Positions 1 through 37,770 of a DNA stretch of 37,770 nt are shown one piece after another. Position 1 is the stretch's first letter. Every line of letters starts with the position of its first letter. The notes beneath the pieces were generated by a model, which did no database searches, was not told the origin of the DNA, and saw only the letters and a program-made list of their open reading frames with translations. A program made the translations under genes and the position numbers. Source of the DNA: a virus. The stretch lies in UHGV virus genome UHGV-1359486; one strand, given 5' to 3'.

Positions 1-1055
1 TGCACGACAAATTAAAGGCCGAACAATGGCGAATTGAGCAGGTAGGGGACTTCCCGGACTATACCTATGAGGAAGCCTGCCTGCGGTGGCTTGAGGAAAA
101 AGCAGATAAAAAATCGATAGAGGATGATAAGAACTTTATCACTTTCTGGCTTGAGTACTTCGAGGGTGTCCGGCTGAAGGATATAACCGAGAATGCCATT
201 TACAAGATCATCAGTAAGATGACAAACAAGCATGCTGAAAACTGCTGGAGAAGGAAAGCTGACACAGCAAAAAGGAAGGGAAAGGAGGTGCCGCTGTTTA
301 CATCGAAGCCTGTCACTACGGCTACAAAGGCGCGATACCTTTCTTTCATTAAGGCGCTACTCAGAGCGGCAGAAAGAGAATGGAAGTGGATAGAAAAGTC
401 ACCTGTGATAAAAATCCCATCTATTCGTGATCGGAGAGTCCGGTGGCTTGAGCCTGTCGAGGCGAAAAGACTGATTGATGAATGTCCTGAGCCATTAAAG
501 TCAGTCGTCAGGTTCGCTCTGTCAACCGGCCTGCGTCGTTCGAACATACTTAACCTTGAGTGGCAGCAGATAGACATGCAGCGGAAAGTGGCATGGATTT
601 ACCCTGAAGACAGTAAATCAGGTAAAGCGATCGGTGTAGCCCTGAACGATACCGCATGCAGGGTTTTGCGCAGCCAGATTGGTCGCCATCACAAATGGGT
701 ATTTGTCCACACTGATCCGTCATACAGGAATGACGGAACACCGGTTGCGGCAGTAAGAAAGATGAGGCCGGATTCTAATACAGCATGGAGAGCAGCATTA
801 AAAAGAGCCGGTATCGATGATTTCCGTTTCCATGACCTGAGACACACCTGGGCAAGCTGGCTGATCCAGTCTGGCGTTCCGCTTTCAGTGTTACAGGAAA
901 TGGGCGGGTGGGAGTCGATAGAAATGGTGCGCAGATATGCCCATCTGGCACCAAATCATCTTACCGAACATGCGAAGCAAATAGATGCCATTTTTGACAG
1001 TTACGTCCCAAATACGTCCCAAGGTGAAAAACTGGCATCGGGAGATAATCACTAA
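1..1055 (+). CDS. int: Tyrosine integrase, 3' part (continues from 37662..37770)
   Basis: Open from position 3 without start; C-terminal catalytic motifs HDLRHTWAS and MVRRYAHL (R...HxxR...Y); close to P22 Int as recalled. Confidence 0.9.
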
Positions 1056-1070
1056 GTCTTTGATAAGTAA

Positions 1071-1120
1071 TGGTGCCGGATACCGGATTCGAACTGGTGA
1101 CCTTTTCATTACGAAACCGA
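1071..1120 (-). other. attP core: 3' portion of a tRNA gene (anticodon-loop-like TTCGTAA, T-arm GGTTCGAATCC, acceptor 3' strand, CCA); no D-arm/5' half present
   Basis: Reverse complement reads ...TTCGTAATGAAAAGGTCACCAGTTCGAATCCGGTATCCGGCACCA, 16 nt after int stop; loop suggests anticodon CGU (tRNA-Thr), the site used by P22-family integrases. Confidence 0.6.
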
Positions 1121-1292
1121 AGATTTATTAAAATACAACACGTTACACCGCATCTTTTCTCGCTCTCACGTACCAAGATGCATAAAGTTACCCGCTGATA
1201 CGCAAGCATGCAAAATGTTCCGCGTCCCAAACTCGTCCCAATACCCCTTCTCCTGCTATACTCCCATCATCACCCACCACTCCGAATCTAAC

Positions 1293-1517
1293 ATGCACAA
1301 TATAGCCAACCTCCCACAAGACGAAAAAGACAAAATTAATGCCGATTTAGCCGCATCCGGTATCGCGTACAAAGAAAGACTCGGACTGCCGTATGATCTG
1401 TACGAAACAGAAAACCAGCAGCCCGAGCATTTACGCCCGTACTTCAGAGAGAGGCTGGAGCACTACAGGGAGATCGGGAAAAGGCTTCCGCGTGGGTTCG
1501 AGTATGAGAAGGAGTGA
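1293..1517 (+). CDS. Hypothetical small protein (74 aa) next to attP; start uncertain (track ORF 1215..1517)
   Basis: ORF only; no convincing Shine-Dalgarno. Confidence 0.3.
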   Translation: MHNIANLPQDEKDKINADLAASGIAYKERLGLPYDLYETENQQPEHLRPYFRERLEHYREIGKRLPRGFEYEKE

Positions 1518-1598
1518 TCATGTCACGTTCATGCTGACCTATCTTTACAGGAATGGTAACATGGTGTCATATATCTTGGTTTTTTTTGGACTATTTTA

Positions 1599-2663
1599 AT
1601 GATAACAAAAGAACAGAAAATTGACTGCATAAATTATGCAAAAGCAATAGGAATAATTGCGGTTGTTATTGGTCATTATAAAAATGACATGTTCGATGTA
1701 TTCAAACCTTATATGTATCATATGCCTTTATTTTTCTTTATTGGTGGCATTTTACATAACGATAAAAGAAGCATTACAAATAGCATTCTAACCACCATAA
1801 AAAAACATCATTTTTATATAGTGGTTAATTATATACTAATTGGGATATTTATAATTGCAGTAAATAACTCATTTGGAACGTCATTGAGAAACCCATTTGA
1901 TGAATCAATCATTGGAACGATAAAGTATGCGGTGACATGGAATTTCCATTCCAATACGCTGTTTTTGGTTGCATGGTTTTTGTTTGCATACTCTTTAATA
2001 TTTGTTTTATTTTCAGTGATGATTAACAAAATAACAAAAGGTAAATTACCTATATTTCTAATTTCAATTTTTCTTGGTGTTATTGGTTACTACGTGGCGG
2101 TTGAGATGTATGCTAAAAGTGAATTGTTTTATCTTAACTTATTAAGTCAGGTTTTGGTTGGGTCAATGTTTTATGGCATAGGAGTATCAATAAAGGATAG
2201 GTTTTTTTCATTGCTCAACCCATTCGCCTTTGTTGTTATATTAATGGCAATACTGACATTGGTTAAACTTGATTATATAGGAACGATAGGAATGTCGTGG
2301 AGTAATTACAATAAAGGGTTGTTTAACCTATTGTTTACACCAGTGGCATGTATTTATTGTGTATTTTTTGTTTCTTACTCATTATCAAAATCAATCGAAT
2401 TCAAGACACTATTGCTCATCGGAATGAATACAAAATCAATAATGTCATATCACTTAGCGGCATTTGTTATATTAGATATATTTTTCAGTTACATTGGGAA
2501 GTATGAAATATCTAACATAAGCGCATTGAATCATTTCAATACATACAAGGTATGGGTTATTTACGTTTTATTTTCAATATTCGCCTCAATCTATTGCGAG
2601 AAGATATTTATACATCTGAAAGATAAGTCGCTGCTAATCGCAAAAAGAAAACTATTGGATTAA
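1599..2663 (+). CDS. Acyltransferase family 3 integral membrane protein (O-antigen acetyltransferase-like; probable lysogenic conversion gene)
   Basis: 354 aa, about 10 predicted TM helices, N-terminal motif INYAKAIGIIAVVIGHY typical of acyltransferase_3; very AT-rich; same position as oac in Sf6-type phages. Confidence 0.6.
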   Translation: MITKEQKIDCINYAKAIGIIAVVIGHYKNDMFDVFKPYMYHMPLFFFIGGILHNDKRSITNSILTTIKKHHFYIVVNYILIGIFIIAVNNSFGTSLRNPFDESIIGTIKYAVTWNFHSNTLFLVAWFLFAYSLIFVLFSVMINKITKGKLPIFLISIFLGVIGYYVAVEMYAKSELFYLNLLSQVLVGSMFYGIGVSIKDRFFSLLNPFAFVVILMAILTLVKLDYIGTIGMSWSNYNKGLFNLLFTPVACIYCVFFVSYSLSKSIEFKTLLLIGMNTKSIMSYHLAAFVILDIFFSYIGKYEISNISALNHFNTYKVWVIYVLFSIFASIYCEKIFIHLKDKSLLIAKRKLLD

Positions 2664-2684
2664 GGGGCTGACGCCCCTTTTTCT
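2663..2684 (+). terminator. Rho-independent terminator between convergent acyltransferase and tailspike genes
   Basis: GGGGC-TGAC-GCCCC hairpin followed by TTTTT. Confidence 0.5.
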
Positions 2685-2689
2685 TTAAA

Positions 2690-4621
2690 TTAGATGCATA
2701 TAATTTCAATAAAAAACATCATTCCTGATGTTAATTCATTTGGTTTTACTTTATTACCACTTGTATCAATTAAGTTAAAGTAAACCTCTCCTGACCCAGC
2801 TGATGAGTTGTTGTAAAATGGAGCCAGTGAAATTCCGTTTGCGTTGTTGCAACTGGTACACATCACATATGGGCGTTGATACTTAGTGTATCCAGGCATA
2901 AATTTGACCTTAAAGGCGTATGGATCGCCAGGAACGCTTTCTGCAGAATAAACTCCTGACGCAATATAGAATGAATTATCTACAACGATACCTGACCCGC
3001 CCTGACTAACAAGGCACCCAATTCTCCTGTTTAGTGAGGCGACACTTCCCTCTGACTTGCGCCACTGGTATGAGTTATTTCTTGAAATGACTGGTGTCGC
3101 CATATTTACATATTTAAGTGGTATGTTTCCGCTAATATCATTATCGCCAGCATCAACCCCTTTTATTGTTATTATATTATCTTGCTTCTCAGGATATCCG
3201 GCATAGTCCCAACAGAAAAAATCAATTCTATTTTGCCCTGCACCATCAATAAATAGAGAGCTAACGGCATCACCTCCCCACTGCTGTACATAGTCACATT
3301 GAATTTCAGCTATTTGTGTGTTGTATGGATATGCATCCGTAGTTATAGGGACGCACTTGATGGTTATGCCATGCAAAGCCCCCTCAACCCTTATGTTTCT
3401 AAAAATACATGACGTTATCCATGATCCACCATCTGAACCCGCTGTGCCTTCCGCTGCAACATCCTCCTTTTTAGGCTGCACGGCGAGTACCTGTAATGCA
3501 TACTCACCAAACCCTAAAGTCAGGTCAGTGAACTTCCCCCAACAAATGCTATTCCATCTGCGGCGGTCGTCAACATACTGGCCTCCGTCCTTGCTTAAAT
3601 CAGCACGAAGCATGAGTGAAGTACCGGTCTTGTCTTTCGAGCAACCAACCAGGTTAAGGTTACTGATCGTTATGTTGCGGAGGTTATTTTTACCGATAAC
3701 CAATGCAACAGAATGATTCCATTCTGTTAGGTCACTATCGACGGCTATTCTCGCCTTATTACCATGCCCTTCTGTGCTGAATTCAATATTGTCATTTTCA
3801 AACACAAACCAATCGTTACGTAGTGAGCGGTTAATTAACTGAGCTCCGCCAGAAAAACGGAAGTTTTTCTTAACCTTGACCTGGCTGTTGCAATCAAATG
3901 ACATTTTAGGGATCAGGATGGTGTTTACTGCTGCAATTTCCTGAAGGCCACCCAGAATACTTCCGATATCAGTATTCTCCTGAGCGCCAACAGAAAGGAT
4001 ATCAGCGCCGTTTGTAACATCCAATGTTGCAGTCAGTCCGTTATCCAGGATGACGTTTACCAGCGTGTCTGGCTGATTATTTGTGATTGCATAAATGCCC
4101 TCACCACCATCACCAGGAGAGTAATATCCGCGAGTTTTGACCGTAGCCCCAAGTGGAAGTGATGTATCCGCTACCATTGCAGCGACATTATCGAAGACGC
4201 GGAGATAGTTTTCAGTCAGGCCACCTATCATTTTATATCCATCGTCCCCGCCTAACTCCCCCCTTATCCTTACATCAAATTGATCAGGGTCATACTTCAA
4301 AACATTAGGATAATAGAACTGCTGAGCTCCGTATGAATCATACACCGCCATAGAATGGCCTTGTATGGTAACGAACTTCGCAATCTGCCCGTTATATACC
4401 GGATAGCCAGCTTGGTTAATAATCAGAGGCTGAGTTGCGGGAATGTGCGTTCCATCTTCGTTTTCAAGATACACCTGAATTTGGTTTTCCGGTATGGTGG
4501 GATCGGTGTCAATTTTCCCGATGAAGATTTTCCCGTTACTCGCCGCCTGGAATTTGCGTGCAAGCGTGAACAACTGCGAAGGCATGCTCACTACAACATT
4601 AGGAATAATTTGTTCTGACAT
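2690..4621 (-). CDS. Tailspike protein (P22 gp9-type N-terminal head-binding domain + divergent beta-helix receptor-binding domain)
   Basis: N-terminus [13 protein letters not shown]...[12 protein letters not shown]...[10 protein letters not shown] matches P22-family tailspike head-binding domain; ATG at 4619-4621 with GGAG 6 nt upstream (track ORF starts at TTG 4633). Confidence 0.85.
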
Positions 4622-4689
4622 TGCTTTCTCCAAGCGTGAGTAGTCGCATCAGACTATGATGTGATTTTTTAATTTAATAGGAGTGTGAT

Positions 4690-4788
4690 ATGAACAATAA
4701 CAACTACGATGCAGACGAATTTGCGTCACTAATAATCAAGGTTGCTATTGCTTTTGCGGTAATAACATTTTTAATTAAATATATTTAG
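4690..4788 (+). CDS. Micro-ORF, 32-aa hydrophobic peptide (MNNNNYDADEFASLIIKVAIAFAVITFLIKYI)
   Basis: AGGAG 6 nt upstream of ATG; in the 172-bp gap between gp16 and tailspike, antisense to late genes. Confidence 0.3.
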   Translation: MNNNNYDADEFASLIIKVAIAFAVITFLIKYI

Positions 4789-4805
4789 CCATCCGTGGCT
4801 CATGT

Positions 4806-6917
4806 TCACTTGGACTTTTCTCCCTGCATCACTGCAGTGGTGGCCTGTGATATCTGAGAGATAAGGCGATCATATGCTGTGCTACCCTTTGGGGTGTTCG
4901 CCAACCTAAGCATCATGTTACGTATCGGCTTGCTTTCATATACTCTAGCAAGCCCCCCATAAGTGGCAAACGCGGCAGTTAAAGCACCGCCATTCCCCAG
5001 CACGTCAGCTGCCACTCCCGTCGGTATACCAACCTGCAAAAGCTCCTGCCCGGTAGGGGTAACCGTGCCAGCTCTGGATGCCCTTTGTGTCTGCTCAAGG
5101 TATTTTTTCAGCCCATTCAGATATTGCTTCTCGTTACCTTTAAACAGGATACCTGTCTGCGCTGAAAGCCGGTTTATTTCATTCAGGAACTTCTCCGGAC
5201 TGCCGCCTGATTTCTCATAGGCTTTGCCGATAACAGACGCTCTTGCCGCATTCCTTCCGCGGCTGTCGAGTGATCTGTATAGTTGCTGAACCTCACTTTT
5301 CTTATTACTGAAAAGGAGGTTGTTAGCAACTTCCGGCGTGAGTTCGCCTTTCTGCAGAACGGATTTCAGGCGCGTATTATTCACCACCTGAGCCTCATGA
5401 GCGTATGCCGCATTCGCCTGGCGATAACGATCTGCCACTCTGGCACCGAGGTTATCAGACACAGACTGATTGATATCTTTTGACATAGCGTCATATACAC
5501 GGTTAACCGCCCCTTGAGACTGAGAAGGCCACACCATGCGGTCACCTTTCACATCCTGTCTGAACTGCGTTCTCAGGTCTCTCATCAGGCTAAAATCAGC
5601 GCCTTTCACCAACTCATCACGATAAGTCTGTAATTTATTGATGGTTTGAGTGTCAGCCGCGCCGCCAAGCCGCGCCAGTCGACTCATTTCATTATCGATA
5701 GCTGTGATGGCTTGTGTCGGGTTTATGGTGCCTACCGACTGCATTGCGGAGTCTACTTCAGACATGCGCTTACCTGCCGCCTGTTTAACCTTGCTGGTCT
5801 GTCTCTGAAGGCTCTGAACCACTTCATCAGGTGATGGAGCGGCAAAGCTTTCTGAGTATTCCTGAATCAGTTTGCTCCTTGCTTCCTGCTGATTTCTGCG
5901 TAGTGAGCCAGTGCCGGTAACGGGTATTTTCTCAGCCAGTGCCTGAGCTGAACGACCAGAGAATGTGCCTGGCTGAACAGCATCAGTGGTCATCAGCGGT
6001 GCGTTATTAGCATCGGCAAACTTAACTGCCTCTGCCGCCTCCGGTGACATCTTTCCTTTTATTGCCCGAGCCGCAGCGCCGACAATATTTTCAAATGCCT
6101 TACCGCCGGTGCCTAGAACACCAGATAATCCAACCTGAAGCGGGTCAATATCAGTTCCGCCCATGTAACTTGTGGTGCCCTGAATTAACGCATCCGTACC
6201 GGCTGCGCGAAGACCAGCGCTGACCAATCCGCCTGCACGTCCAGCCGGTGTATATGATGCTGCCAGAGCCGCGCCAGATGCCACATCCTCGGGAGATAGG
6301 CCGGGTTTGTTAAGGGAATACCTTCTTTCAGGTAAAGAAACTATTTTTTCACCATTCTCCCCATCAATCACCACTCCGCCGCTTTCTTTTGCCACCCTTT
6401 CTGCCATTTCTGCGAGCTCTGGTATCCATCCCATTTCAACAACTCGTTTATTCGCAGGCAGGGTAACAATAGCGTTTCCTTTCACATCATAGGAAATTGT
6501 CGCCCCCATGTTTTTCAGCATGATTTCCTGATCCTGCTGATTACCCATCATCTGAGCCCAGGCAACTTTGGCGGCATCTTTTGTCATGGACTTCATTTCT
6601 GGCGCATCAGATATTGATGGAAGGTTTTCAATTTCTGGTGTCATGCGGCTCTCGCCGGTAACCATGTCTTTCACATTAGCCCAAAATCCTTCCGGCTGCT
6701 GCGCTTCCGGCTGCTGCACCGGAGCAGGCTGCTGCTCTTGCTGCACTGTCTCAACCGGATATGCAGTGTAAAACTGCTGCCTTGCCTCATTCACAGCTTC
6801 ACCCGCCCGCGGGGCAACAACGTCATTAAAGTATTGCTCCTGCGCTTCAGCTCTTTGCTGAGGTGAAAGAGCTTGATATTGCTGAGAGGCAATAACGTCT
6901 TTCCATGCCTTAGCCAT
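4806..6917 (-). CDS. Ejection (internal virion) protein, P22 gp16-like
   Basis: 703 aa; last of the 7-20-16 ejection-protein trio by synteny; start overlaps gp20 stop by 1 nt. Confidence 0.75.
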   Translation of the reverse strand: MAKAWKDVIASQQYQALSPQQRAEAQEQYFNDVVAPRAGEAVNEARQQFYTAYPVETVQQEQQPAPVQQPEAQQPEGFWANVKDMVTGESRMTPEIENLPSISDAPEMKSMTKDAAKVAWAQMMGNQQDQEIMLKNMGATISYDVKGNAIVTLPANKRVVEMGWIPELAEMAERVAKESGGVVIDGENGEKIVSLPERRYSLNKPGLSPEDVASGAALAASYTPAGRAGGLVSAGLRAAGTDALIQGTTSYMGGTDIDPLQVGLSGVLGTGGKAFENIVGAAARAIKGKMSPEAAEAVKFADANNAPLMTTDAVQPGTFSGRSAQALAEKIPVTGTGSLRRNQQEARSKLIQEYSESFAAPSPDEVVQSLQRQTSKVKQAAGKRMSEVDSAMQSVGTINPTQAITAIDNEMSRLARLGGAADTQTINKLQTYRDELVKGADFSLMRDLRTQFRQDVKGDRMVWPSQSQGAVNRVYDAMSKDINQSVSDNLGARVADRYRQANAAYAHEAQVVNNTRLKSVLQKGELTPEVANNLLFSNKKSEVQQLYRSLDSRGRNAARASVIGKAYEKSGGSPEKFLNEINRLSAQTGILFKGNEKQYLNGLKKYLEQTQRASRAGTVTPTGQELLQVGIPTGVAADVLGNGGALTAAFATYGGLARVYESKPIRNMMLRLANTPKGSTAYDRLISQISQATTAVMQGEKSK

Positions 6918-8305
6918 TAATCACCCCATAATGATGAATATCCGGATTGCTGCTGAGCCGGTTGCTGTTTTGATGACGGCTTACTACCACCGACATCCGC
7001 GTTGTATTGCTGGTTATAGTTGTTGGTGTATTCCTGAATTTCCATCAGAGACTGCTTCATGGCATCCGGGCTTGAGTAGTCCATCTGCGGCATACCCTGG
7101 AAATACATTTTTGCCTCTGCCACGGTGTTAATACCACTCGCCCCCATATCGCGAGCGGCCGCAATACCCTGGTTCTGCATTCTCCCCTGTACGCGCTGGG
7201 CGGCGGTATAAAACTGACGCTGTTCTTTGCCGTTCCACCGGCTGCGGTAATCAGCACCCACCGCCGGAGCACCAACACCGCCGGAAACGCCCGTCATGAA
7301 GTCCAGTTGTTCAGGATCAGCATTGAGAATGGCATCGATGTCTTTCTTCATGGCATAGTTGGTTGCACTCGCTGATGAGCTTGCAGGAGCTGCTATCGAG
7401 TTCGCTGGCACTCGCACGGTGTTGCCGTTATTGTCTATCCCTTCGTAATATGCGTTGGCTCCGGATCCGTGAACCTTGCCAACAATCCCGACAGTGCGGC
7501 CATCAGAGAGCTGAACAGTTCGCTCCCCCTCTCCGCCACCGGAAGACATTGACCGCTGCATAGCCATATCCTGTCCGCGGCGGGTAGTTGATGCTGATAT
7601 ATCCTGACCACGTCTCGCTGTTGCCGCGCTGATATCCTGACCACGGCGGGTGGTTTCGGCAGAAAGCCGGTTACCTTCTGCGGTAATGTCCTGCCCTCGC
7701 ATGGTTACTTTGCGATTCTCTTTATCGCCAATAACATCAAAGTATTTTTCAGGAGTGAGCGCACTCATGCCGATGGTGTCAGCCAACTCAACTGCACCTT
7801 TCGGGTCAGCCTTAGCCAGGCGCTGCGCTTCTTTCGGGTCAATACCGAGACGCATCAGTTCAGCCGCGTTTTTGGCAACAAACTGATCACCTGTTCCGGC
7901 ATTAACTGCCATGCGAAAGTTTGCGGCCACATTACCGAGTGATTCGCGGGTGTCAGCGGAGATTCCTTCCATGCCTTTCCCGATCTGCTCATTCATTTCG
8001 GGATACTCAGCAAAGAGTTGGCGCATAGATGCAGTATCACCGGCAGCGCGGGCTGTTCCATATTTCTGGAAAAACTCCTGCTGTCTCTGTGCCTGCTGGT
8101 CAGCCTGGTACATTTGAGCGACCCCATACAGTCCCTGCAATCCCTGCAATACAGGGTTATTGGCACCTGAACTCTGAATATCATTATTTTCCCGGATGAG
8201 AGACAGTGCTGTGTTTGCGTCAGTTGCGCGGGGCGCGTTGCTATTCACCCCGCCAATTCCGCCGAGAAGACTTCCGGCAATGCCGCCCTGATTCCATGTT
8301 GCCAT
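6917..8305 (-). CDS. Ejection protein, P22 gp20-like
   Basis: 462 aa, Gly/Ala/Gln-rich with internal RRGQDIS repeats; synteny. Confidence 0.75.
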   Translation of the reverse strand: MATWNQGGIAGSLLGGIGGVNSNAPRATDANTALSLIRENNDIQSSGANNPVLQGLQGLYGVAQMYQADQQAQRQQEFFQKYGTARAAGDTASMRQLFAEYPEMNEQIGKGMEGISADTRESLGNVAANFRMAVNAGTGDQFVAKNAAELMRLGIDPKEAQRLAKADPKGAVELADTIGMSALTPEKYFDVIGDKENRKVTMRGQDITAEGNRLSAETTRRGQDISAATARRGQDISASTTRRGQDMAMQRSMSSGGGEGERTVQLSDGRTVGIVGKVHGSGANAYYEGIDNNGNTVRVPANSIAAPASSSASATNYAMKKDIDAILNADPEQLDFMTGVSGGVGAPAVGADYRSRWNGKEQRQFYTAAQRVQGRMQNQGIAAARDMGASGINTVAEAKMYFQGMPQMDYSSPDAMKQSLMEIQEYTNNYNQQYNADVGGSKPSSKQQPAQQQSGYSSLWGD

Positions 8306-8314
8306 AACTCCCCC

Positions 8315-9007
8315 TTAAAACAGACTGCCGAGTAACCCAAGGCCGGCACCAATACCGGCACCCCACGGAGTCGAAGCGCCAATAGCGCTAGCAATACCGC
8401 CGCCCAACATAGCCCCTGATGCACCTCCGCTGATTGCCTGCTGGAAACCAGACGGGCGATTAGCATTCGCTGCCGCCAGTGCTGCCTGCTGCTGATAAAG
8501 AGAGCCCATATTGTTGGCGTAGTTCTGCCCGGCGTTGGCCTGCCCCTGTAATGCACCGAGGCCGATATTTGCCAGATTCTGAGCGCTGTTCATCTGATCA
8601 CCAAGCCATGACTGACCGAGAGTAGGGGCAATTGCTGCGAGTTGGTTCGCAGTTGCTGTAGACCCAAGCCCACCCGTCGCTTCAGCTGCATTCAGAGCCT
8701 GATAGCGAGACTGGTCAGCCTGCCTCTTGTACATGTCTGAGCCATAGAAACCCTGCAGCGCCTTATCCTGACCTTCAAGTGTTGACAACCCCTGCATCTG
8801 AGTAATGTACTGCTGTGCTAATGGCGTGAATGGAGCAAGGTTTGTCATAATCCGGTTGAATTGAGCGTCCTGCAAATCGGCGGAATGCCTCATTGCATCA
8901 GCCTGAGCGCCTGCGCCATTATCGCCGCCACCCTTACCGCCTTTTTCAGGGAACAGAGGTTCTTCACCGGCAATCTTTCGTGCCAGTTTAAAAATATATC
9001 CGGACAT
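8315..9007 (-). CDS. Ejection protein, P22 gp7-like
   Basis: 230 aa with Gly/Ala-rich C-terminus; synteny and size match P22 gp7. Confidence 0.75.
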   Translation of the reverse strand: MSGYIFKLARKIAGEEPLFPEKGGKGGGDNGAGAQADAMRHSADLQDAQFNRIMTNLAPFTPLAQQYITQMQGLSTLEGQDKALQGFYGSDMYKRQADQSRYQALNAAEATGGLGSTATANQLAAIAPTLGQSWLGDQMNSAQNLANIGLGALQGQANAGQNYANNMGSLYQQQAALAAANANRPSGFQQAISGGASGAMLGGGIASAIGASTPWGAGIGAGLGLLGSLF

Positions 9008-9009
9008 AA

Positions 9010-9471
9010 TTATCTCCGCTGATTACCGAGGAATTCGGTTAATTCTTCACGCGTTGCTGAGTAGAAAGTGACGTCATCAACGCCTTTGAAATACTTTCTG
9101 ATGGTGCCAACACGGCCAAGTCCGATACTTGCGCAGTACATCTGGCCGTGCCGGAATTTACGCGCTGCAAATGATGTCACGCACTGGACGTAAGTTGATG
9201 AGAGGATGAGCTGCCAGAATGCCAGGCCGATATCCTTGCTGAACCCCCTGACCTCTGGTAGGTACATAGCATGACACTCGAACGTCATCGGCTGCACTTC
9301 TTCGTAATACACGATGCCGCCGAACTGCCCGTGCACGTCAACCTCAAAATGTCTGCGTTCCGGTTTATAATCGAACCCGTCCCCGTTGTTACTCCCGGCA
9401 ATAATGTCAGGGTGGTTACCAACGGCCTCAATCAGGTCGATATTCCTCGTTGGTTTGAATGTGATCATCAT
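9010..9471 (-). CDS. P22 gp14-like virion assembly/ejection-associated protein
   Basis: 153 aa; position between tail needle and gp7; ATGA overlap with upstream gene. Confidence 0.65.
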
Positions 9472-10334
9472 TGCTCCGCAATAATTTTTATGGTCGTGGC
9501 GGTGAACGCAGCGCCATTTGCCTGAATAGTTAGCGTGCTGCCGTTTGTGGCAAGGAAGCCGCCTTTATCTACGCTGAAGAATGTCGCCAGGAGAATATTA
9601 TCCGTAGTGGTAGCTACGTTTCTGCTAGCGACCAACGTGTCAGGTACAGCGCCGGAGAAAGTTAGCTGCATAGACCGGTTTGTAGTACCTCCAGGATAAC
9701 TACCGATAAGTGCCAATTTGAAATTGAGCGTTTTGCTCTCGTTAAAAACGACCATCTTATTGTTAATGGTGTCAAAAAACGGAGCCAGAGTACCTGATGT
9801 CGGAGTAAGTGACTTAAGCATGGTAACTAGGTTAGTCGGCGTCGTTGGTATTACCTGTGATATGCCGGTATAAACAACCTCTGATTTCTTGCGTGTCGTG
9901 GCATACTCAAGAGCTGCAATCCTACCTTCATGGCTTACCAGTGCCGCTTCATTAGCGGTTATGCGCGTTTCGTGGTCATCCAATTCAGCTTCAATGTCGA
10001 TAACCTTATCCAGAAGGTAATCTACATCATCGCGCAGTATGTCGATCTTCCCTTCTGCTGTTGTCAGTCGTACATCAAGAAGCTGAATTGCATTGGTGTT
10101 AGCGGTAATCCTACCTTCATGGTCTGCGAGCACTACATCCTGCTCATCATTTTTAACCTGCGCATCATATGCCCCCTGACCTGCCTCATTTGCTTTTCCT
10201 GTCACTCTGGTGAAGTCCAGTGACTGAGACAGCACATACATCCGGTAAGCAGGAGAAAACACGACAGGGAGAGACGCAGCATTAATTCCGACCGCAGTCA
10301 CTGCGATGGGGTCTTTTAAACTTTCATCAGCCAT
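9468..10334 (-). CDS. Tail needle (P22 gp26-like) with extended C-terminal knob domain
   Basis: N-terminal [22 protein letters not shown]...ADHE..RI coiled-coil as in P22 gp26; 288 aa versus about 233 in P22. Confidence 0.85.
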
Positions 10335-11752
10335 TATTCCGCCCTTACTGTCAGGTCAGACAGTGTTACCGGCGCTTTGGTTATTACCCTGATTTTGAAC
10401 CCGACATTTTTGCGGATACGGCCAATACGCTTCCAGATAATGCGCTGGTCATAACGGAACGGTGCATTCTGAGAAATCATCTGCTCGCGGCCATAATTAA
10501 TACCGTCAGTGGTGACCGACAGGAATAACCGGTCAGCAATCTGAGCGACACCGGTCGATGCCTCAAGCTCAAGGTCAAACAGCCTGGCGTTATCGGCTTT
10601 AATCAGTGGGGTGTACAGCAGGTGCTCTGCCTGCGCGTCATACTGCGATGAGGCATTGAACACCAGGCGACCAACAACCGGCTGCTTTTTGTCACCGACG
10701 GTTATCTGATTACCTTCATACATAAAATCAACTGCCCGGTGCGGCTCATCAAACAGGCCGGTTTTCAGCACAGCCCATTGCTGGCCGTTCTGGCTTGCTG
10801 CCGCGTCGAATACCAGTACATGTCGTGGAAGGTGAATGATTAGCAGCTCGTGAGAGTCAAACCGTACCGACTCCATGATGCCGCCGGATAATTCATCTGC
10901 GGTGTAACCGCGCAGTATCTTCTCGATGGTTGCCGTGGCGATAGATTTAACCTGACCGGAGTCAACCAGATAAACAGACGGTGCACCGCTGGCCGGATGG
11001 CTGATGATAGCGAACGCATCCATGTAGTTGCATTTGCAGAATGTTCCGGCAATGCCCTTACTGACCATATATGACGGGTTAGCCATATAAAGCGCTGCGC
11101 CGACAGTGGTCGAACCGGTAAGTGTGAAATACTCAATCGTGGAAGCGCCGAAGCACACAATGAAGTCACGCCACACGCCGAGGCCGATAATGCCGTCAGG
11201 CTGCGATTCAGCGCGATACTGTCCGCTGTATTTGTCGGGATGAGATTCATCTTCAAGGTCTGAAATGAAAAAGCTGTCAGTGCCTGCTTTCGACCACACA
11301 TACCGGCCTTTAACCCTGGCAACATCACTCGCCTCACCCAACTCATACTGGATATATCCGGTATCTACAGGCCAGTTGGTGATCGTCTTCTCTCCTCCGT
11401 CATAGCGATACTGCGTTATTTTTCCGCCGGACAATACAGCCTGACTGGTTGCACTGTATGCCATTGATACGCGGGATTTGCCGGACACGCTGCCGATAAC
11501 ACTGTCACCGCGATACAGCTTGCCGCCGAGAACACGATATACAGCATTCTTCGCGGTGTTGTACTGGACGCCACGCGACACTCCGTCAGCATCACGAAGC
11601 TTTTCGACTCCGGGAAATGACCGCATATAACCGGCAGCATTCAGGACTTCTTTCGGAGTTGCCAGCATATTCACCGGCAGGGAGTCGACATAATCAGCAG
11701 TCCTGAAATCTTTCGAAAGCCCCCTAGATATCGGAACCTGAATCTTCGGCAT
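10334..11752 (-). CDS. Tail accessory factor, P22 gp10-like
   Basis: 472 aa, same length and position as P22 gp10. Confidence 0.8.
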
Positions 11753-12221
11753 TGTCTTTACTCCGGTGGAAGTATCGATACCCGTTCATCGTTGCCAGCC
11801 TGTTTCCTGAGCCAATCGGGAACCCGTTAGGGTAATGCGATCTGGCCTCTCTGGCCTTGCGCAATGAAACAGTGCGTAACAGACGCTCTTTGCCATAACG
11901 GGCAGTAGTGATGACCTTATCGAGTGGGGCAATCTGGTAATCTGGCGCAATTCGTAATGCGAGGTTGTAGATAACGGCGCTGATGGCTGCTTTGCTGATG
12001 CCGTGGTCGTCACCCTGATCAATCGGAGTGTCGTCTGGTGCAAATTTATAGCCGGTAATAATACCTTTGCCGTCCTCGTACCACTCAAACATCATTGCCT
12101 CAAGATCATTAACGCCATCCTCAAGAGACTGCGGTTCGATGTCTGTCAGTGTGGCATCAGAAGCAACTCCGATTTTACGAAGCGCCGCAACGACTAATTC
12201 ACCCTTCGTTAGTATCTGCAT
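11724..12221 (-). CDS. Tail accessory factor, P22 gp4-like
   Basis: 165 aa; position downstream of coat. Confidence 0.8.
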
Positions 12222-12429
12222 CTTTCACCGCCTTTTTTCGCTGGGTGCGCGGTTTCTTTTCTGGCTCTGGCTCTGGCTCTGGCTCTGTCAAAGTTTGAGT
12301 GTCTTCCGGGTGCATATACCATCCAGCATCGAGATAATTTTCAATTTCATCATCTTCAACCGTGATGATTTGCAGTTTCATGCCCCAGATTTTTACATTG
12401 CCATTGGCTTTATAAAGCATCGTGCTCAT
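12199..12429 (-). CDS. Small protein (76 aa) with EPEPEPEPE repeat between coat and gp4
   Basis: ATG at 12427-12429 with GGAGAT upstream; track ORF 12199..12612 extended by alternative start; contains the (GGCTCT)4 repeat. Confidence 0.45.
12261..12286. repeat. Perfect hexanucleotide tandem repeat (GGCTCT)x4
   Basis: Read directly; encodes Glu-Pro repeats on the minus strand. Confidence 0.9.
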
Positions 12430-12441
12430 TGGTATCTCCAA

Positions 12442-12464
12442 TAAAAAAGGGAGCCGAAGCTCCC
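12442..12464 (-). terminator. Rho-independent terminator/attenuator just downstream of coat gene
   Basis: Minus-strand GGGAGC-UUCG-GCUCCC hairpin followed by UUUUUU. Confidence 0.55.
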
Positions 12465-12481
12465 AATGTGACAACGAGGAT

Positions 12482-13774
12482 TTATTTCTGACCGGCCAGA
12501 CCAACACCAATCGCTTCAGGACGGACAGCGCATGCTGAATACCAGACAGCAATACGGCACAGGCCGGACAGCGTGCTGATATCACCCTGAGTGGCGAAGA
12601 TGCCGTTAACACCTACGCCCGGGATGCTGAATGACTGAGTTTTCATGCCAGCAAACAGCTCATGGGTTACCGGGATCGGCTGCGACAGAAGGCGGATTGA
12701 ATCATCAGCCCAGAACACGTTTGCCGTGGTGGTGGAAATGTTCAGAACGTTAATGGCCGCACCATCCGCGAGAGATGTGTTCACATTAGCGTATGCTTTT
12801 TCTTCCGCAGTCAGTGTGGTGTCATTCAGCGCTACAGGCTTCGGAGTGATCTCAATGTGAGTACCATCGATAACGCGGGTGATGGAGAATGTCGCATCAT
12901 CAGTCAGCACGTTTTTAGCCATCTGAGACAGGAACTTCACACCGGCGAATGAAACCTTATCTCCGCGCTTAAACCCTGTGGACGAGGACACCGTTACAGT
13001 GGCGACACGGTTATCAACGTTCTCCGGGTTACCGTCAGCATCAGTTGTGCCTGCTTCAGGCTTGAACTTCTGAGCGCCGGAAACAGTTACTCCGGTAGCA
13101 GTCGATGCGGTAACCGCCGGAAGCTTAGGTGAACGAAGGATTTCATCGAACCCCGCAATCTGGCGCTGGATAGTGCCGTTACGGTAAGCATCTTCAGGAA
13201 TGCGGCCGAAAATATCACCATCGACCAGGCTGCGCCCTGATTTGCGGTAATCATCCGGGTTCAGGAAATAACTGATCCCCATATCGCGGTTAAGCTCGCG
13301 GGAGAACATGAGGCGTTCTGCATCAGACACAAAGTCCCAGCCGCTCAGGCCGGTAGATGGGCCGATGTCGCGCTCATCATGAACAACAAGAGAGCCCATT
13401 TCAGTCGCCTGTTTGGCAATGGCCGTTTCAATGTTGTTTGCCAGCTTCTTAGCGGATGCCTGGATGCGGCGGCGGAATGACCGCTCGTCACGCAGCTCAT
13501 CAGCACGTAACTGGAAGAAATCGTTATCCGGAGTACCCATGTTGCATTTCACTGACAACTCAAGCACACCGGTCTGTTTGTTGGTTAAGTCCCAACCTGA
13601 CTGGGTAGGCGCTTCCTGCTCAACAGGCATCCACACAGTGTTTCCTGAACGCTGCATAGATTCAGCAGGTGGCGAGTACTTCGTGGTTTTCTGCGCCATC
13701 GGAGTGAGGTTTTCGACAGTTTCAATGATTTCGTCGATCGCATATGTAACTAACTGACCTTCTTTTAAAGTCAT
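12482..13774 (-). CDS. Major coat protein (P22 gp5 family)
   Basis: 430 aa; long collinear identity to P22 coat as recalled (PMAQK..., [27 protein letters not shown]). Confidence 0.95.
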
Positions 13775-31991: not shown

Positions 31992-32787
31992 CATCAGCAA
32001 TGATGACTATCACAACGGCCCCGGGATAAGTAAATCGCAGCTGGACCTTATCGAACAATCACCGGCTGACTTTATCTGGCAACGGAATGCCCCGGTGGAT
32101 GAGGAAAAAATAAAGGCTCTGGATTTCGGGACCGCTGTTCACTGCCTTTTGCTTGAGCCTGATGAGTTCAATAACCGGTACAGGATAGGGCCGGAAGTAA
32201 ACAGACGCACATCCGCAGGGAAGCAGGAAGAAAAGGAATTCTTCGAAATGTGCGAAAAAGAAGGAATCACGCCAATCACCCATGACGACAACAGGAAGTT
32301 GATGATCATGCGGGATAGTGCCATGGCCCACCCTATCGCCAAATGGTGCCTTGAAGCTGAAGGAAAAGCCGAGAGCAGCATTTACTGGAATGACAAGGAA
32401 ACGGACATTCTTTGCCGGTGCAGGCCGGACAAACTGATAGGACAACACGGATGGATTGTCGATGTGAAAAGCACCGCGGACATGTCCCGCTTCGAACGCG
32501 CTTTTTACGATATGCGCTATCACGTTCAGGACGCGTTTTACTCAGACGGATATAAGGACCTGTCCGGAGAGTTACCGGTGTTCGTATTTCTCGCGGTCAG
32601 CACAACAATCGACTGCGGAAGATATCCGGTCCGTGTATTCATTATGGATGATGTGGCAAAGGATGCCGGACGGTCCGCATACAAACAAAATCTCAGAACA
32701 TACACCGAGTGCATTAAAACGGATGAATGGCCCGGTCTGAGAACACTATCACTGCCACGCTACGCAAAGGAACTGAGAAATGAGTAA
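31969..32787 (+). CDS. RecE-type exonuclease (nuclease domain only; PD-(D/E)XK)
   Basis: GIYDDISNDDYHNGPGISKSQL, SSIYWND, CRCRPDKL, GWIVDVKSTAD, YHVQDAFYSDGY match the C-terminal nuclease domain of E. coli RecE as recalled. Confidence 0.8.
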   Translation: MQPGIYDDISNDDYHNGPGISKSQLDLIEQSPADFIWQRNAPVDEEKIKALDFGTAVHCLLLEPDEFNNRYRIGPEVNRRTSAGKQEEKEFFEMCEKEGITPITHDDNRKLMIMRDSAMAHPIAKWCLEAEGKAESSIYWNDKETDILCRCRPDKLIGQHGWIVDVKSTADMSRFERAFYDMRYHVQDAFYSDGYKDLSGELPVFVFLAVSTTIDCGRYPVRVFIMDDVAKDAGRSAYKQNLRTYTECIKTDEWPGLRTLSLPRYAKELRNE

Positions 32788-33589
32788 CCCACCAATCGCA
32801 CAGGCGGACCTGCAAAAAGCACAAGGGACCGCGGTTAAAGAAAAAACAAAAGACCAGCAGCTAATCCAGTTCATAAACCAGCCAGGCATGAAAGCTCAAC
32901 TAGCAGCCGCCCTGCCGAGGCATATAACACCGGACCGCATGATCAGGATTGTCACCACCGAGATACGGAAAACTCCATCACTGGCAACCTGTGACATGCA
33001 AAGCTTTATCGGCGCTGTTGTTCAGTGCTCGCAACTTGGCCTTGAGCCAGGTAACGCATTGGGCCACGCCTACCTCCTTCCGTTCGGCAATGGTAAAGCG
33101 GCATCAGGGCAATCAAATATTCAGTTAATTATCGGATATCGCGGCATGATCGACCTCGCCCGCCGATCCGGTCAAATTATCAGTATATCGGCCCGCACTG
33201 TGCGCGAAGGTGACAGTTTTCATTTTGAATATGGCTTAAACGAGGACCTTACACACGTACCCGGCGAAAATGACTCGGGCCCAATCACCCACGTTTATGC
33301 AGTGGCCCGCCTGAAAGAAGGTGGTGTTCAGTTTGAGGTTATGTCTTTCTCTCAGATTGAGAAGGTCCGCGATTCAAGCAAGGCCGGTAAAAATGGTCCA
33401 TGGGTATCTCACTGGGAAGAAATGGCGAAAAAGACCGTCATCCGCCGCCTGTTCAAATATCTGCCGGTATCTATCGAGATGCAGAGGGCCGTCATTCTGG
33501 ATGAAAAAGCAGAGGCCAACGTGGACCAGGAGCATGCATCTATTTTTGAAGGTGAGTACGAAACTGTATCGCCGGAATCCGCGGGGTAA
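32780..33589 (+). CDS. recT: RecT-family single-strand annealing protein
   Basis: 269 aa; LLPFG, IGYRGMIDLARRSG motifs; coupled downstream of the nuclease. Confidence 0.85.
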   Translation: MSNPPIAQADLQKAQGTAVKEKTKDQQLIQFINQPGMKAQLAAALPRHITPDRMIRIVTTEIRKTPSLATCDMQSFIGAVVQCSQLGLEPGNALGHAYLLPFGNGKAASGQSNIQLIIGYRGMIDLARRSGQIISISARTVREGDSFHFEYGLNEDLTHVPGENDSGPITHVYAVARLKEGGVQFEVMSFSQIEKVRDSSKAGKNGPWVSHWEEMAKKTVIRRLFKYLPVSIEMQRAVILDEKAEANVDQEHASIFEGEYETVSPESAG

Positions 33590-34171: not shown

Positions 34172-34963
34172 ATGACTGCTTACTATAACGAAATCGACCC
34201 GTTCGCTGCTCAGTGGTTACGGAATCTCATTGCTGCCGGCCATATAGCGCCGGGTGTAGTGGACGAAAGGAGTATTGAAGATGTCACACCAGATGATTTA
34301 CGCGGATTCACACAATGCCACTTCTTCGCCGGTATCGGGGTGTGGTCACTCGCACTGCGCCGTGCAGGATGGCCGGATGATAAACAAGTCTGGTCAGGAA
34401 GTTGTCCGTGCCAGCCTTTCAGCGCGGCAGGCAAAGGAAATGGGTTTGCTGACGAGCGGCACCTTTGGCCTGCATTCTTCCACCTCATCAGCGAGTGCAA
34501 ACCTGGCGTTATCTTTGGTGAACAGGTTGCAAGCAAAGACGGCCTCGGGTGGCTCGACCTTGTTCAAACTGACTTGGAAGCAACGAACTACGCCGTCGCC
34601 GCGGTCGATTTATGCGCTGCGGGCTTCGGTGCGCCGCATATCAGACAGCGATTGTTCTGGGTGGGCAACGCCAACAACCAGGGAATGGAAGGAATGCGGG
34701 GATGTGAGTCAGTCATTCTTCCGGAAGGACGGGAAGATGCGAAACGACACGCTATACCGCCAGCTATGGCTGCACATGTTTGGGATGGATGGCAGGCCGT
34801 CACGGGAGCAGATAAAAAATCTCGAATGCTGCCACCTGACTTTGGCGAGAGAACTGATGATGCTGCCGGTAGAGTTGGAAAACTCCGCGCCTACGGAAAT
34901 GCCATCGTCGCGCCGGTCGCGGAAGAATTTATAAGGGCTTATATGCTGATAACAGAGGAATGA
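34172..34963 (+). CDS. DNA (cytosine-5)-methyltransferase-like protein, orphan, short target-recognition region
   Basis: 263 aa; motif I FFAGIGV, motif IV SCPCQPFSAAGK, ENV-like FGEQV, QRL, motif X YGNAIV; no adjacent nuclease gene. Confidence 0.6.
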   Translation: MTAYYNEIDPFAAQWLRNLIAAGHIAPGVVDERSIEDVTPDDLRGFTQCHFFAGIGVWSLALRRAGWPDDKQVWSGSCPCQPFSAAGKGNGFADERHLWPAFFHLISECKPGVIFGEQVASKDGLGWLDLVQTDLEATNYAVAAVDLCAAGFGAPHIRQRLFWVGNANNQGMEGMRGCESVILPEGREDAKRHAIPPAMAAHVWDGWQAVTGADKKSRMLPPDFGERTDDAAGRVGKLRAYGNAIVAPVAEEFIRAYMLITEE

Positions 34964-37445: not shown

Positions 37446-37770
37446 AGTCACGATGACACGCGACGAGGCTGCTAAATTTATCGGCGTAAGCCCTGATACG
37501 CTTACGTCATGGTGCCGCGCCGGACGCATTTCGTATCAGCGGAAAGACCCGTTCAAAAAGAAGTCACCCTATCTGTTTACAGAGTCAGCCTGCCTTGCGG
37601 CACTGAGCAATCCGATCAACACTATCGCCGAGAGCGAGATTGATGTGAAAGGAGATCACAAATGTCAATCTTCAAACGTGGTAACTCTTGGTATTGCGAC
37701 TTCGCGACACCTGGCGGCAAGAGAATTAAAAAGTCGCTTGGTACGTCCGACCGGAAGCAAGCCCAGGAGC
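37438..37770 (+). CDS. xis: Excisionase, 5' 111 codons (frame closes at window positions 13-15)
   Basis: GAAGGAG RBS; HTH-like [41 protein letters not shown] resembles P22 Xis; overlaps int start. Confidence 0.7.
37662..37770 (+). CDS. int: Tyrosine integrase, 5' part (continues at 1..1055)
   Basis: [48 protein letters not shown] continues in frame into window position 1. Confidence 0.9.

Follow-up and report, generated by a model that had tools for sequence, protein, structure and literature searches.

The UHGV virus genome UHGV-1359486 (37,770 nucleotides on one strand, here called the window in its full length) encodes a 643-residue tailspike of mosaic construction, in which a virion anchor of the P22/Sf6 type is joined to an unrelated receptor-binding body. 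The gene most likely belongs to a temperate podophage of Morganella that is P22-like (Lederbergvirus-type), and the body of its spike, a foreign beta-helix directed at the O-antigen, probably arrived together with an acyltransferase gene in a single block. The domain architecture, the breakpoints, the block shared with other prophages and the predicted fold are directly supported by the comparisons below (coordinates in Table 1). The gene can be assigned with high confidence to the P22-like tailspikes by its anchor, its genomic position and its predicted fold.

The anchor is identified by Pfam domain PF09008 (Head_binding; residues 4-114, E = 3.4e-65) and by a sequence search of PDB chains, which matched the tailspike at residues 4-124 only; the best match was Sf6 gp14 (7sg7, E = 3e-56), and P22 gp9 constructs and full-length chains (2xc1, 8tvr; E ~ 1e-42) aligned to residues 5-118 only. 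Of 111 positions, 87 are identical to Sf6 gp14 (78%, residues 5-115), with nothing significant by BLASTP after residue 115, and 72 of 114 are identical to P22 gp9 (63%). By sequence the protein as a whole falls outside both the P22 and the Sf6 endorhamnosidase families. Residues 1-116 would attach the spike to the tail hub, the role of this domain in P22 and Sf6. Translation begins at an ATG (4621) with a GGAG ribosome-binding site ahead of it, which gives N-terminal residues like those of the homologues; the upstream TTG at 4633 is an unlikely start.

Over its first 120 residues the protein shares 90-96% identity with dozens of head-binding tailspikes from Morganella, Proteus and Providencia that bear other bodies. 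The Pfam domains carried on those bodies include GDPD phosphodiesterase, SGNH/GDSL esterases, SASA (sialate-O-acetylesterase-like), endonuclease/exonuclease/phosphatase (PF03372) and several beta-helix types (examples of anchor-sharing proteins with different bodies are P0054, P0059, P0071, P0085 and P0095). The tailspike repertoire of the Morganellaceae on the P22-type anchor is rich and largely uncharacterised. Megablast of the tailspike gene found nothing among 50,697 phage records and, among 5,426 E. coli genomes, only a stretch of the N-terminal domain, 77% identical, in one genome; these searches rule out a coliphage or a Salmonella phage.

Structure prediction (monomer model) gives the body, after a short linker, the fold of a right-handed parallel beta-helix, and the model is confident on either side of the linker. 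Residues 117-643 are moderately rich in Gly (10.8%), Asn (8.0%) and Ser (7.6%). The predicted fold is of the tailspike type. Neither the single sequence nor a 25-sequence profile of the body matched any PDB chain significantly (a match to TRAIL, E = 0.28, was rejected as insignificant), no Pfam family was found in residues 116-643 up to E = 5 (beta-helix and pectate-lyase-type families such as PF12708 and PF13229 included), no NCBIfam model matched, and the PHROG matches were only marginal (E ~ 5e-4 to 1e-3) and confined to the query's first ~70 residues.

The sole phage relative of the body among the 50,697 phage genomes is the tail spike gp63 of Enterobacter phage EcP1 (39% identity over 96% of the body). 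An exhaustive HMMER scan of 1.84 billion cluster representatives recovered only three full-length 50%-identity clusters, plus fragments; some 350 weaker matches reach only the first 100-200 residues of the body. Identity is 94-95% to four proteins (P0001-P0004) and 37-65% to the remaining family members, and 80 columns are invariant in an alignment of 25 sequences. Among the Morganella subtypes, residues 131-310 are ~90% conserved, and identity drops to 25-65% in residues 311-643, the C-terminal domain being the most divergent part; one relative (P0005) differs in residues 431-550 only. There is, then, a second tier of modularity inside the body. A literature search on Morganella tailspikes found no characterisation of this family, which on present sequences is narrow, unnamed and uncharacterised, consisting essentially of Morganellaceae prophages and one N4-like Enterobacter phage.

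The boundary between anchor and body is sharply defined in DNA. Identity to the M. morganii P22-like prophages L005 and L006 (89-90% over the anchor-coding DNA) ends at codon 114-116; from codon 131-133 onwards the DNA is homologous to the foreign body. Because the parental homologies stop and start on either side, the crossover is placed within codons 117-131. The linker encoded there is similar to the E(V)RFRGEL..DG linker found in other spikes with a head-binding domain, and leads into the motif DG[FY]x[LM][IV]GGLTENY, which opens the body on all three anchors on which it is found. The first-pass annotation of this gene had assigned roughly the first 110 residues to a P22-type head-binding domain, had described the remainder as unlike the P22 endorhamnosidase and Gly/Asn/Ser-rich as expected of a beta-helix, and had placed a domain-swap point between the two; the present results agree with it on these points, the PDB matches stopping by residue 118 (P22) or 124, with no full-length identity to P22 gp9.

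The two other anchors belong to M. morganii proteins of 666 and 738 residues that carry near-copies of the body, 94-95% identical in protein, behind N-termini unrelated to the P22-type anchor. The 666-residue protein has a siphovirus-type anchor (PF18668, Tail_spike_N), 55% identical to those of siphophage spikes such as that of vB_EcoS Sa179lw, and its gene follows a tail module (tape-measure, DUF1833, NlpC/P60). The 738-residue protein has an anchor with the T7-tail-fibre N-terminal domain, 53-54% identical to the tailspike anchors of epsilon15 and phiV10.

It is very improbable that the reading frame in the window is a decayed or non-functional recombination remnant in a defective prophage, even though the exact chimera was found nowhere else: a search for the exact 40-nt junction in IMG/VR and the GTDB representative genomes gave no other copy, and a protein search of 5.8 billion clusters gave no full-length match above 67% identity, the best being from Xenorhabdus (67%). 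Against such decay, the frame is intact and furnished with a ribosome-binding site and a terminator, the junction keeps the register and motif of functional-looking homologues on three anchors, the structure model is confident on both of its sides, and the closed window contains an intact 387-residue integrase and a full P22-like gene set.

The homology to the other body-bearing prophages extends well beyond the body. Over 1034..4225 the window shares 96.2% DNA identity with L001, the locus of a siphovirus-type prophage, and over 1501..4230 it shares 96.9% with L003, that of an epsilon15-type prophage. Per 150-nt block, identity is 99-100% in most blocks of the acyltransferase gene and ranges from 82% to 99% in the spike body. 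Patches of lower identity occur at 2534..2683, the 3' end of the acyltransferase gene and the intergenic hairpin (85% versus L001), and at 3751..4230, the 5' end of the body (82-91% versus L003); they indicate further small-scale mosaicism inside the shared segment, which is otherwise 96-100% identical. The body would not have evolved in the present phage lineage but would have arrived within a block of ~3.2 kb comprising the body, the AT3 acyltransferase, a gene for a DNA polymerase III theta homolog and the att core, by two crossovers, one in the conserved linker motif and the other at or near the shared att core.

The probable attP core has features of the 3' half of a tRNA (TTCGTAA loop, T-arm and CCA, plus 26 nt), of which the loop suggests Thr-CGT; ARAGORN and Rfam called no tRNA in the core because only the 3' half is present. 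The identical core is found at the prophage junctions of L001 (13590-13621), L006 (13529-13560) and L010 (11303-11334), two siphovirus-type and one P22-like M. morganii prophage, beside a GDSL-lipase gene, and so these phages use the same att site. Beyond the core the three prophages have their bacterial flank in common, whereas the window runs on into int. The shared att site, together with the linker-to-att interval in common with L001, suggests the two-crossover swap between linker and att core as a hypothetical route.

The acyltransferase gene begins, convergently, 26 bases past the tailspike stop codon. Its region has a G+C content of 33-39% versus ~50% for the genome, and its translation is visibly rich in hydrophobic residues. 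It shares with phage genes of the Oac type an AT3 domain, a product length within ~330-360 residues, and a place that adjoins and converges with the tailspike gene. The same AT3 gene, 99-100% identical in DNA, follows the same body in L001 and L003. A tblastn search with the protein against the 50,697 phage records gave no match, and its identification as a homolog of the Sf6 or phiV10 Oac was rejected, the Pfam family alone being common to them.

The downstream region was examined for five body subtypes. The 95% identical subtype has the same AT3 gene downstream in all three contexts, that is, on all three anchors, and the bodies of Xenorhabdus (65% identical) and of two Morganella subtypes (59% and 43% identical) are each followed by an operon of the gtrA-gtrB-gtrC type. 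O-antigen-modification genes (AT3 or gtrABC) therefore lie immediately downstream in four of the five subtypes. Both kinds are well known as O-antigen conversion modules in temperate phages, and both travel from one phage type to another (PMC2629481). In the annotation of Sf6 and phiV10, the tailspike gene is followed by a convergent oac, which acetylates the host O-antigen and gives superinfection immunity. Because of the AT3 and gtrABC neighbours and the Sf6-like gene order, the O-antigen is the likely receptor of the body, and the acyltransferase would protect lysogens. The first-pass annotation had foreseen an O-antigen specificity different from that of P22; this is made plausible by the modification genes downstream of all subtypes but one, and the contrast lies with another host genus, Morganella, rather than with another Salmonella serogroup.

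In the proposed mechanism, residues 132-643 (the beta-helix and the C-terminal beta domain) would bind a Morganella surface polysaccharide, most probably O-antigen, and would probably cleave it, bringing the virion to the outer membrane. Trimer formation and glycanase activity would follow the pattern of P22-like tailspikes, and an O-antigen glycanase activity is proposed with moderate confidence. In a lysogen, the acyltransferase would probably acylate the same polysaccharide and block adsorption of phages with the same body, as Oac does in Sf6 and phiV10; this exclusion, too, is suggested by analogy and with moderate confidence.

A body that is an adhesin for binding only, without cleavage, or that has a receptor other than O-antigen (capsule or another exopolysaccharide), is improbable. 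Against it stand the modification genes of the AT3 or gtrABC kind immediately downstream of four of the five subtypes. Nine Asp/Glu columns (D171, D218, D270, E275, D295, D345, D472, D490 and E639 in the full-length protein) are invariant and seven nearly invariant in a family diverged to 37% identity, which is compatible with a conserved active site, and the characterised spikes of the P22 type, those of P22, Sf6 and HK620, are all endoglycosidases (PMC2629481).

Several observations nevertheless weigh against an O-antigen-directed body that travels with its acyltransferase in a Morganella phage. By sequence (Pfam, NCBIfam, PDB profile) the body falls in no family of glycoside hydrolases or lyases, and its own family is uncharacterised in enzymatic activity and receptor. 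BLASTP of the acyltransferase gave E = 0.12 with Sf6 Oac and E = 5 with phiV10 Oac. No modification gene adjoins the 61% identical body subtype (P0012, on an epsilon15-type anchor). The host assignment comes from DNA identity with assemblies of M. morganii and not from a record of isolation.

A broader proposal, advanced tentatively and at somewhat less than even confidence, is that the body together with its cognate surface-modifying gene makes up a single mobile 'recognise-and-exclude' cassette, which moves among P22-, epsilon15- and siphovirus-type virions in Morganella, recombining at the linker motif (..DG[FY]x[LM][IV]GGLTENY) and, where the tRNA-associated att site is common, at the att core. 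The body and the acyltransferase gene might instead adjoin only because each occupies a conventional slot, the former at the end of the late operon and the latter in the moron position next to attP, the shared block then reflecting recent common ancestry of prophage right arms without any coupled co-mobile unit. Tailspike followed by conversion gene is indeed the default order in P22-like and epsilon15-like phages (PMC2629481), the att core is common to L001 and the window so that exchange of a whole arm would bring along anything located there, the theta gene included, and one body subtype has no conversion gene at all. In the epsilon15-type locus L003, however, the pair of body and AT3 gene is internal, its neighbours being unrelated DNA and lysis genes instead of attP, and homology to the window stops ~100 nt past the AT3 start; moreover, body subtype and kind of modification module change together. 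Independent slots are, on this evidence, the less likely explanation, though a plausible one.

The integrase reading frame is continuous over the window ends (37662..37770 joined to 1..1055, + strand, 387 residues), by which the window appears to be a closed and complete phage genome, 37,770 bp in length; a 278-residue integrase frame (219..1055), which might have been taken for a truncated gene, is the internal-ATG remainder of this tyrosine integrase. At 4870..13651 the window has 86-95% DNA identity with M. morganii prophage genes whose Pfam labels are P22_gp7, Inj_translocase, Phage_P22_gp16, P22_Tail-4 and P22_CoatProtein. The tailspike is encoded after the gp7/gp20/gp16 ejection-protein genes of the late operon. 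Homology to L005 and L006 runs from 27 nt upstream of the tailspike start to codon 114-116 and resumes, in the other direction, at the gp16 homolog (86-95%), with one more divergent segment (66%) in L006 from there onwards. The host, to judge from these identities, is Morganella and most likely M. morganii.

Table 1. Features of the tailspike region of UHGV-1359486, with positions in the window
Feature	Positions	Strand	Basis or remark
Tailspike gene	2690..4621	-	Open reading frame list; 643 residues; stop codon 2690-2692
P22/Sf6-type head-binding (virion anchor) domain, codons 1-116	4274..4621	-	PF09008 and identities
Linker and apparent recombination junction, codons 117-131	4229..4273	-	Without DNA homology to either parental type; low model confidence (pLDDT)
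N-terminal cap and predicted right-handed parallel beta-helix of the body, codons ~132-520	3062..4228	-	
Predicted C-terminal all-beta domain of the body, codons ~532-643	2693..3028	-	Strands E417-527 in model numbering
Putative exchanged block (body, acyltransferase, theta, att core)	1034..4230	.	DNA identity to L001 and L003
AT3-family membrane acyltransferase, convergent with the tailspike; probable O-antigen acyltransferase (lysogenic conversion)	1599..2663	+	354 residues; PF01757, E = 5.5e-14, residues 9-332
GC-rich hairpin (AAGGGGC-TGAC-GCCCCTT) between the two convergent stop codons; probable bidirectional terminator	2662..2679	.	Terminator scan and sequence
DNA polymerase III theta (HolE)-like gene between attP and acyltransferase, in the block common with L001	1293..1517	+	PF06440, E = 2.6e-25
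Probable attP core, ~71 nt, tRNA 3' half-like plus 26 nt; overlaps last int codons	1045..1115	-	Identical at prophage/chromosome junctions

Some further features of the window may be recorded. Only ~185 nt (4622..4805) separate the gp16 homolog from the tailspike gene, and the immI region is absent there, as in Sf6, but present in L005 and L006 (arc/mnt/antirepressor, with a Rap1a-domain gene in addition in L005). Four further prophages of Morganella, belonging to two types (L001, L005, L009 and L010), have a 74-residue theta homolog at the corresponding place near att. ARAGORN reported a 97-nt tRNA-Gly(tcc) at 32908..33004 (- strand), inside the open reading frame 32780..33589, which its length and location suggest is a false positive. 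Positions ~34172..34692 (+ strand), in an otherwise weakly matching early region, share ~80% DNA identity with the genes for a DNA methyltransferase in the Edwardsiella phages eiAU and eiAU-183, and ~78% with Klebsiella and Salmonella phages; they probably encode a methyltransferase acquired horizontally.

Modular tailspikes are a textbook route to change of phage host range, and the mosaic itself was to be expected; modestly new are the uncharacterised body family, its very recent spread over three anchors in one species, and the co-transfer of a surface-modification gene. The locus offers an unusually clean natural experiment, with a ~95% identical body on three anchors in one species and breakpoints mapped to a 15-codon linker, and it is evidence that a surface-modification gene moves with the body. 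If body and modifying gene do form one cassette, prophages that compete for a single attB could trade host range and superinfection exclusion at once, through exchange that is either homologous or mediated by integrase. Morganella is an emerging opportunistic pathogen whose phage receptors are poorly charted, and the pair of body and acyltransferase could serve in O-antigen typing or in the engineering of phages or depolymerases against it.

A conserved head-binding domain of ~115 residues on unrelated bodies is known from P22, epsilon34, Sf6 and HK620 (PMC2629481). The tailspike of the window resembles P22 gp9 in its domain-swap point, after ...KYDPDQ(F/Y), and in the location of its gene after the ejection-protein genes, but the two have nothing alike beyond residue 118, and P22 has gtrABC instead of an AT3 gene and an immI region upstream of gene 9. 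Sf6 has the same gene order (gp16 homolog, tailspike gene without immI between them, terminator, convergent AT3-type O-acetyltransferase gene, attP/int), with its annotated terminator at the place of the hairpin in the window, and the body is a beta-helix in both. Unlike Sf6, however, the window encodes a body without sequence similarity to the Sf6 endorhamnosidase, has a theta-like gene between acyltransferase and attP, and belongs to a phage of a different host genus, Morganella.

Among the Uetakevirus phages, phiV10 and epsilon15 have anchors like that of the 738-residue Morganella protein, and phiV10 also has a convergent oac just downstream; the anchor in the window, in contrast, is P22-type, and the bodies and acyltransferases are unrelated in sequence. 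EcP1 gp63 (Schitoviridae) is the best structural match to the body in BFVD (E = 7e-39), but EcP1 is a lytic N4-like phage, its spike has a PF18668-type anchor, and the function of gp63 is uncharacterised. The solved tailspike depolymerases CBA120 TSP2 and Acinetobacter phage Fri1 gp49 are only 11-13% identical to the body and have no sequence family in common with it, so that their catalytic residues cannot be transferred. The triad of P22, 9NA and Det7 is the classical example of a single body carried by three morphotypes. In E. coli phages, anchors follow phage taxonomy and bodies follow host serotype (PMC10408124). The Morganella tailspikes resemble both the triad and the exchange across genera of receptor-binding domains for E. 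coli O-antigens (PMC10408124; PMC2629481): one body is placed on the anchors of different virion types, the anchors going with phage taxonomy and the bodies with the surface type of the host. In Morganella, however, a single host species harbours copies with 95% protein and 96-97% DNA identity, and the block also carries a surface-modification gene.
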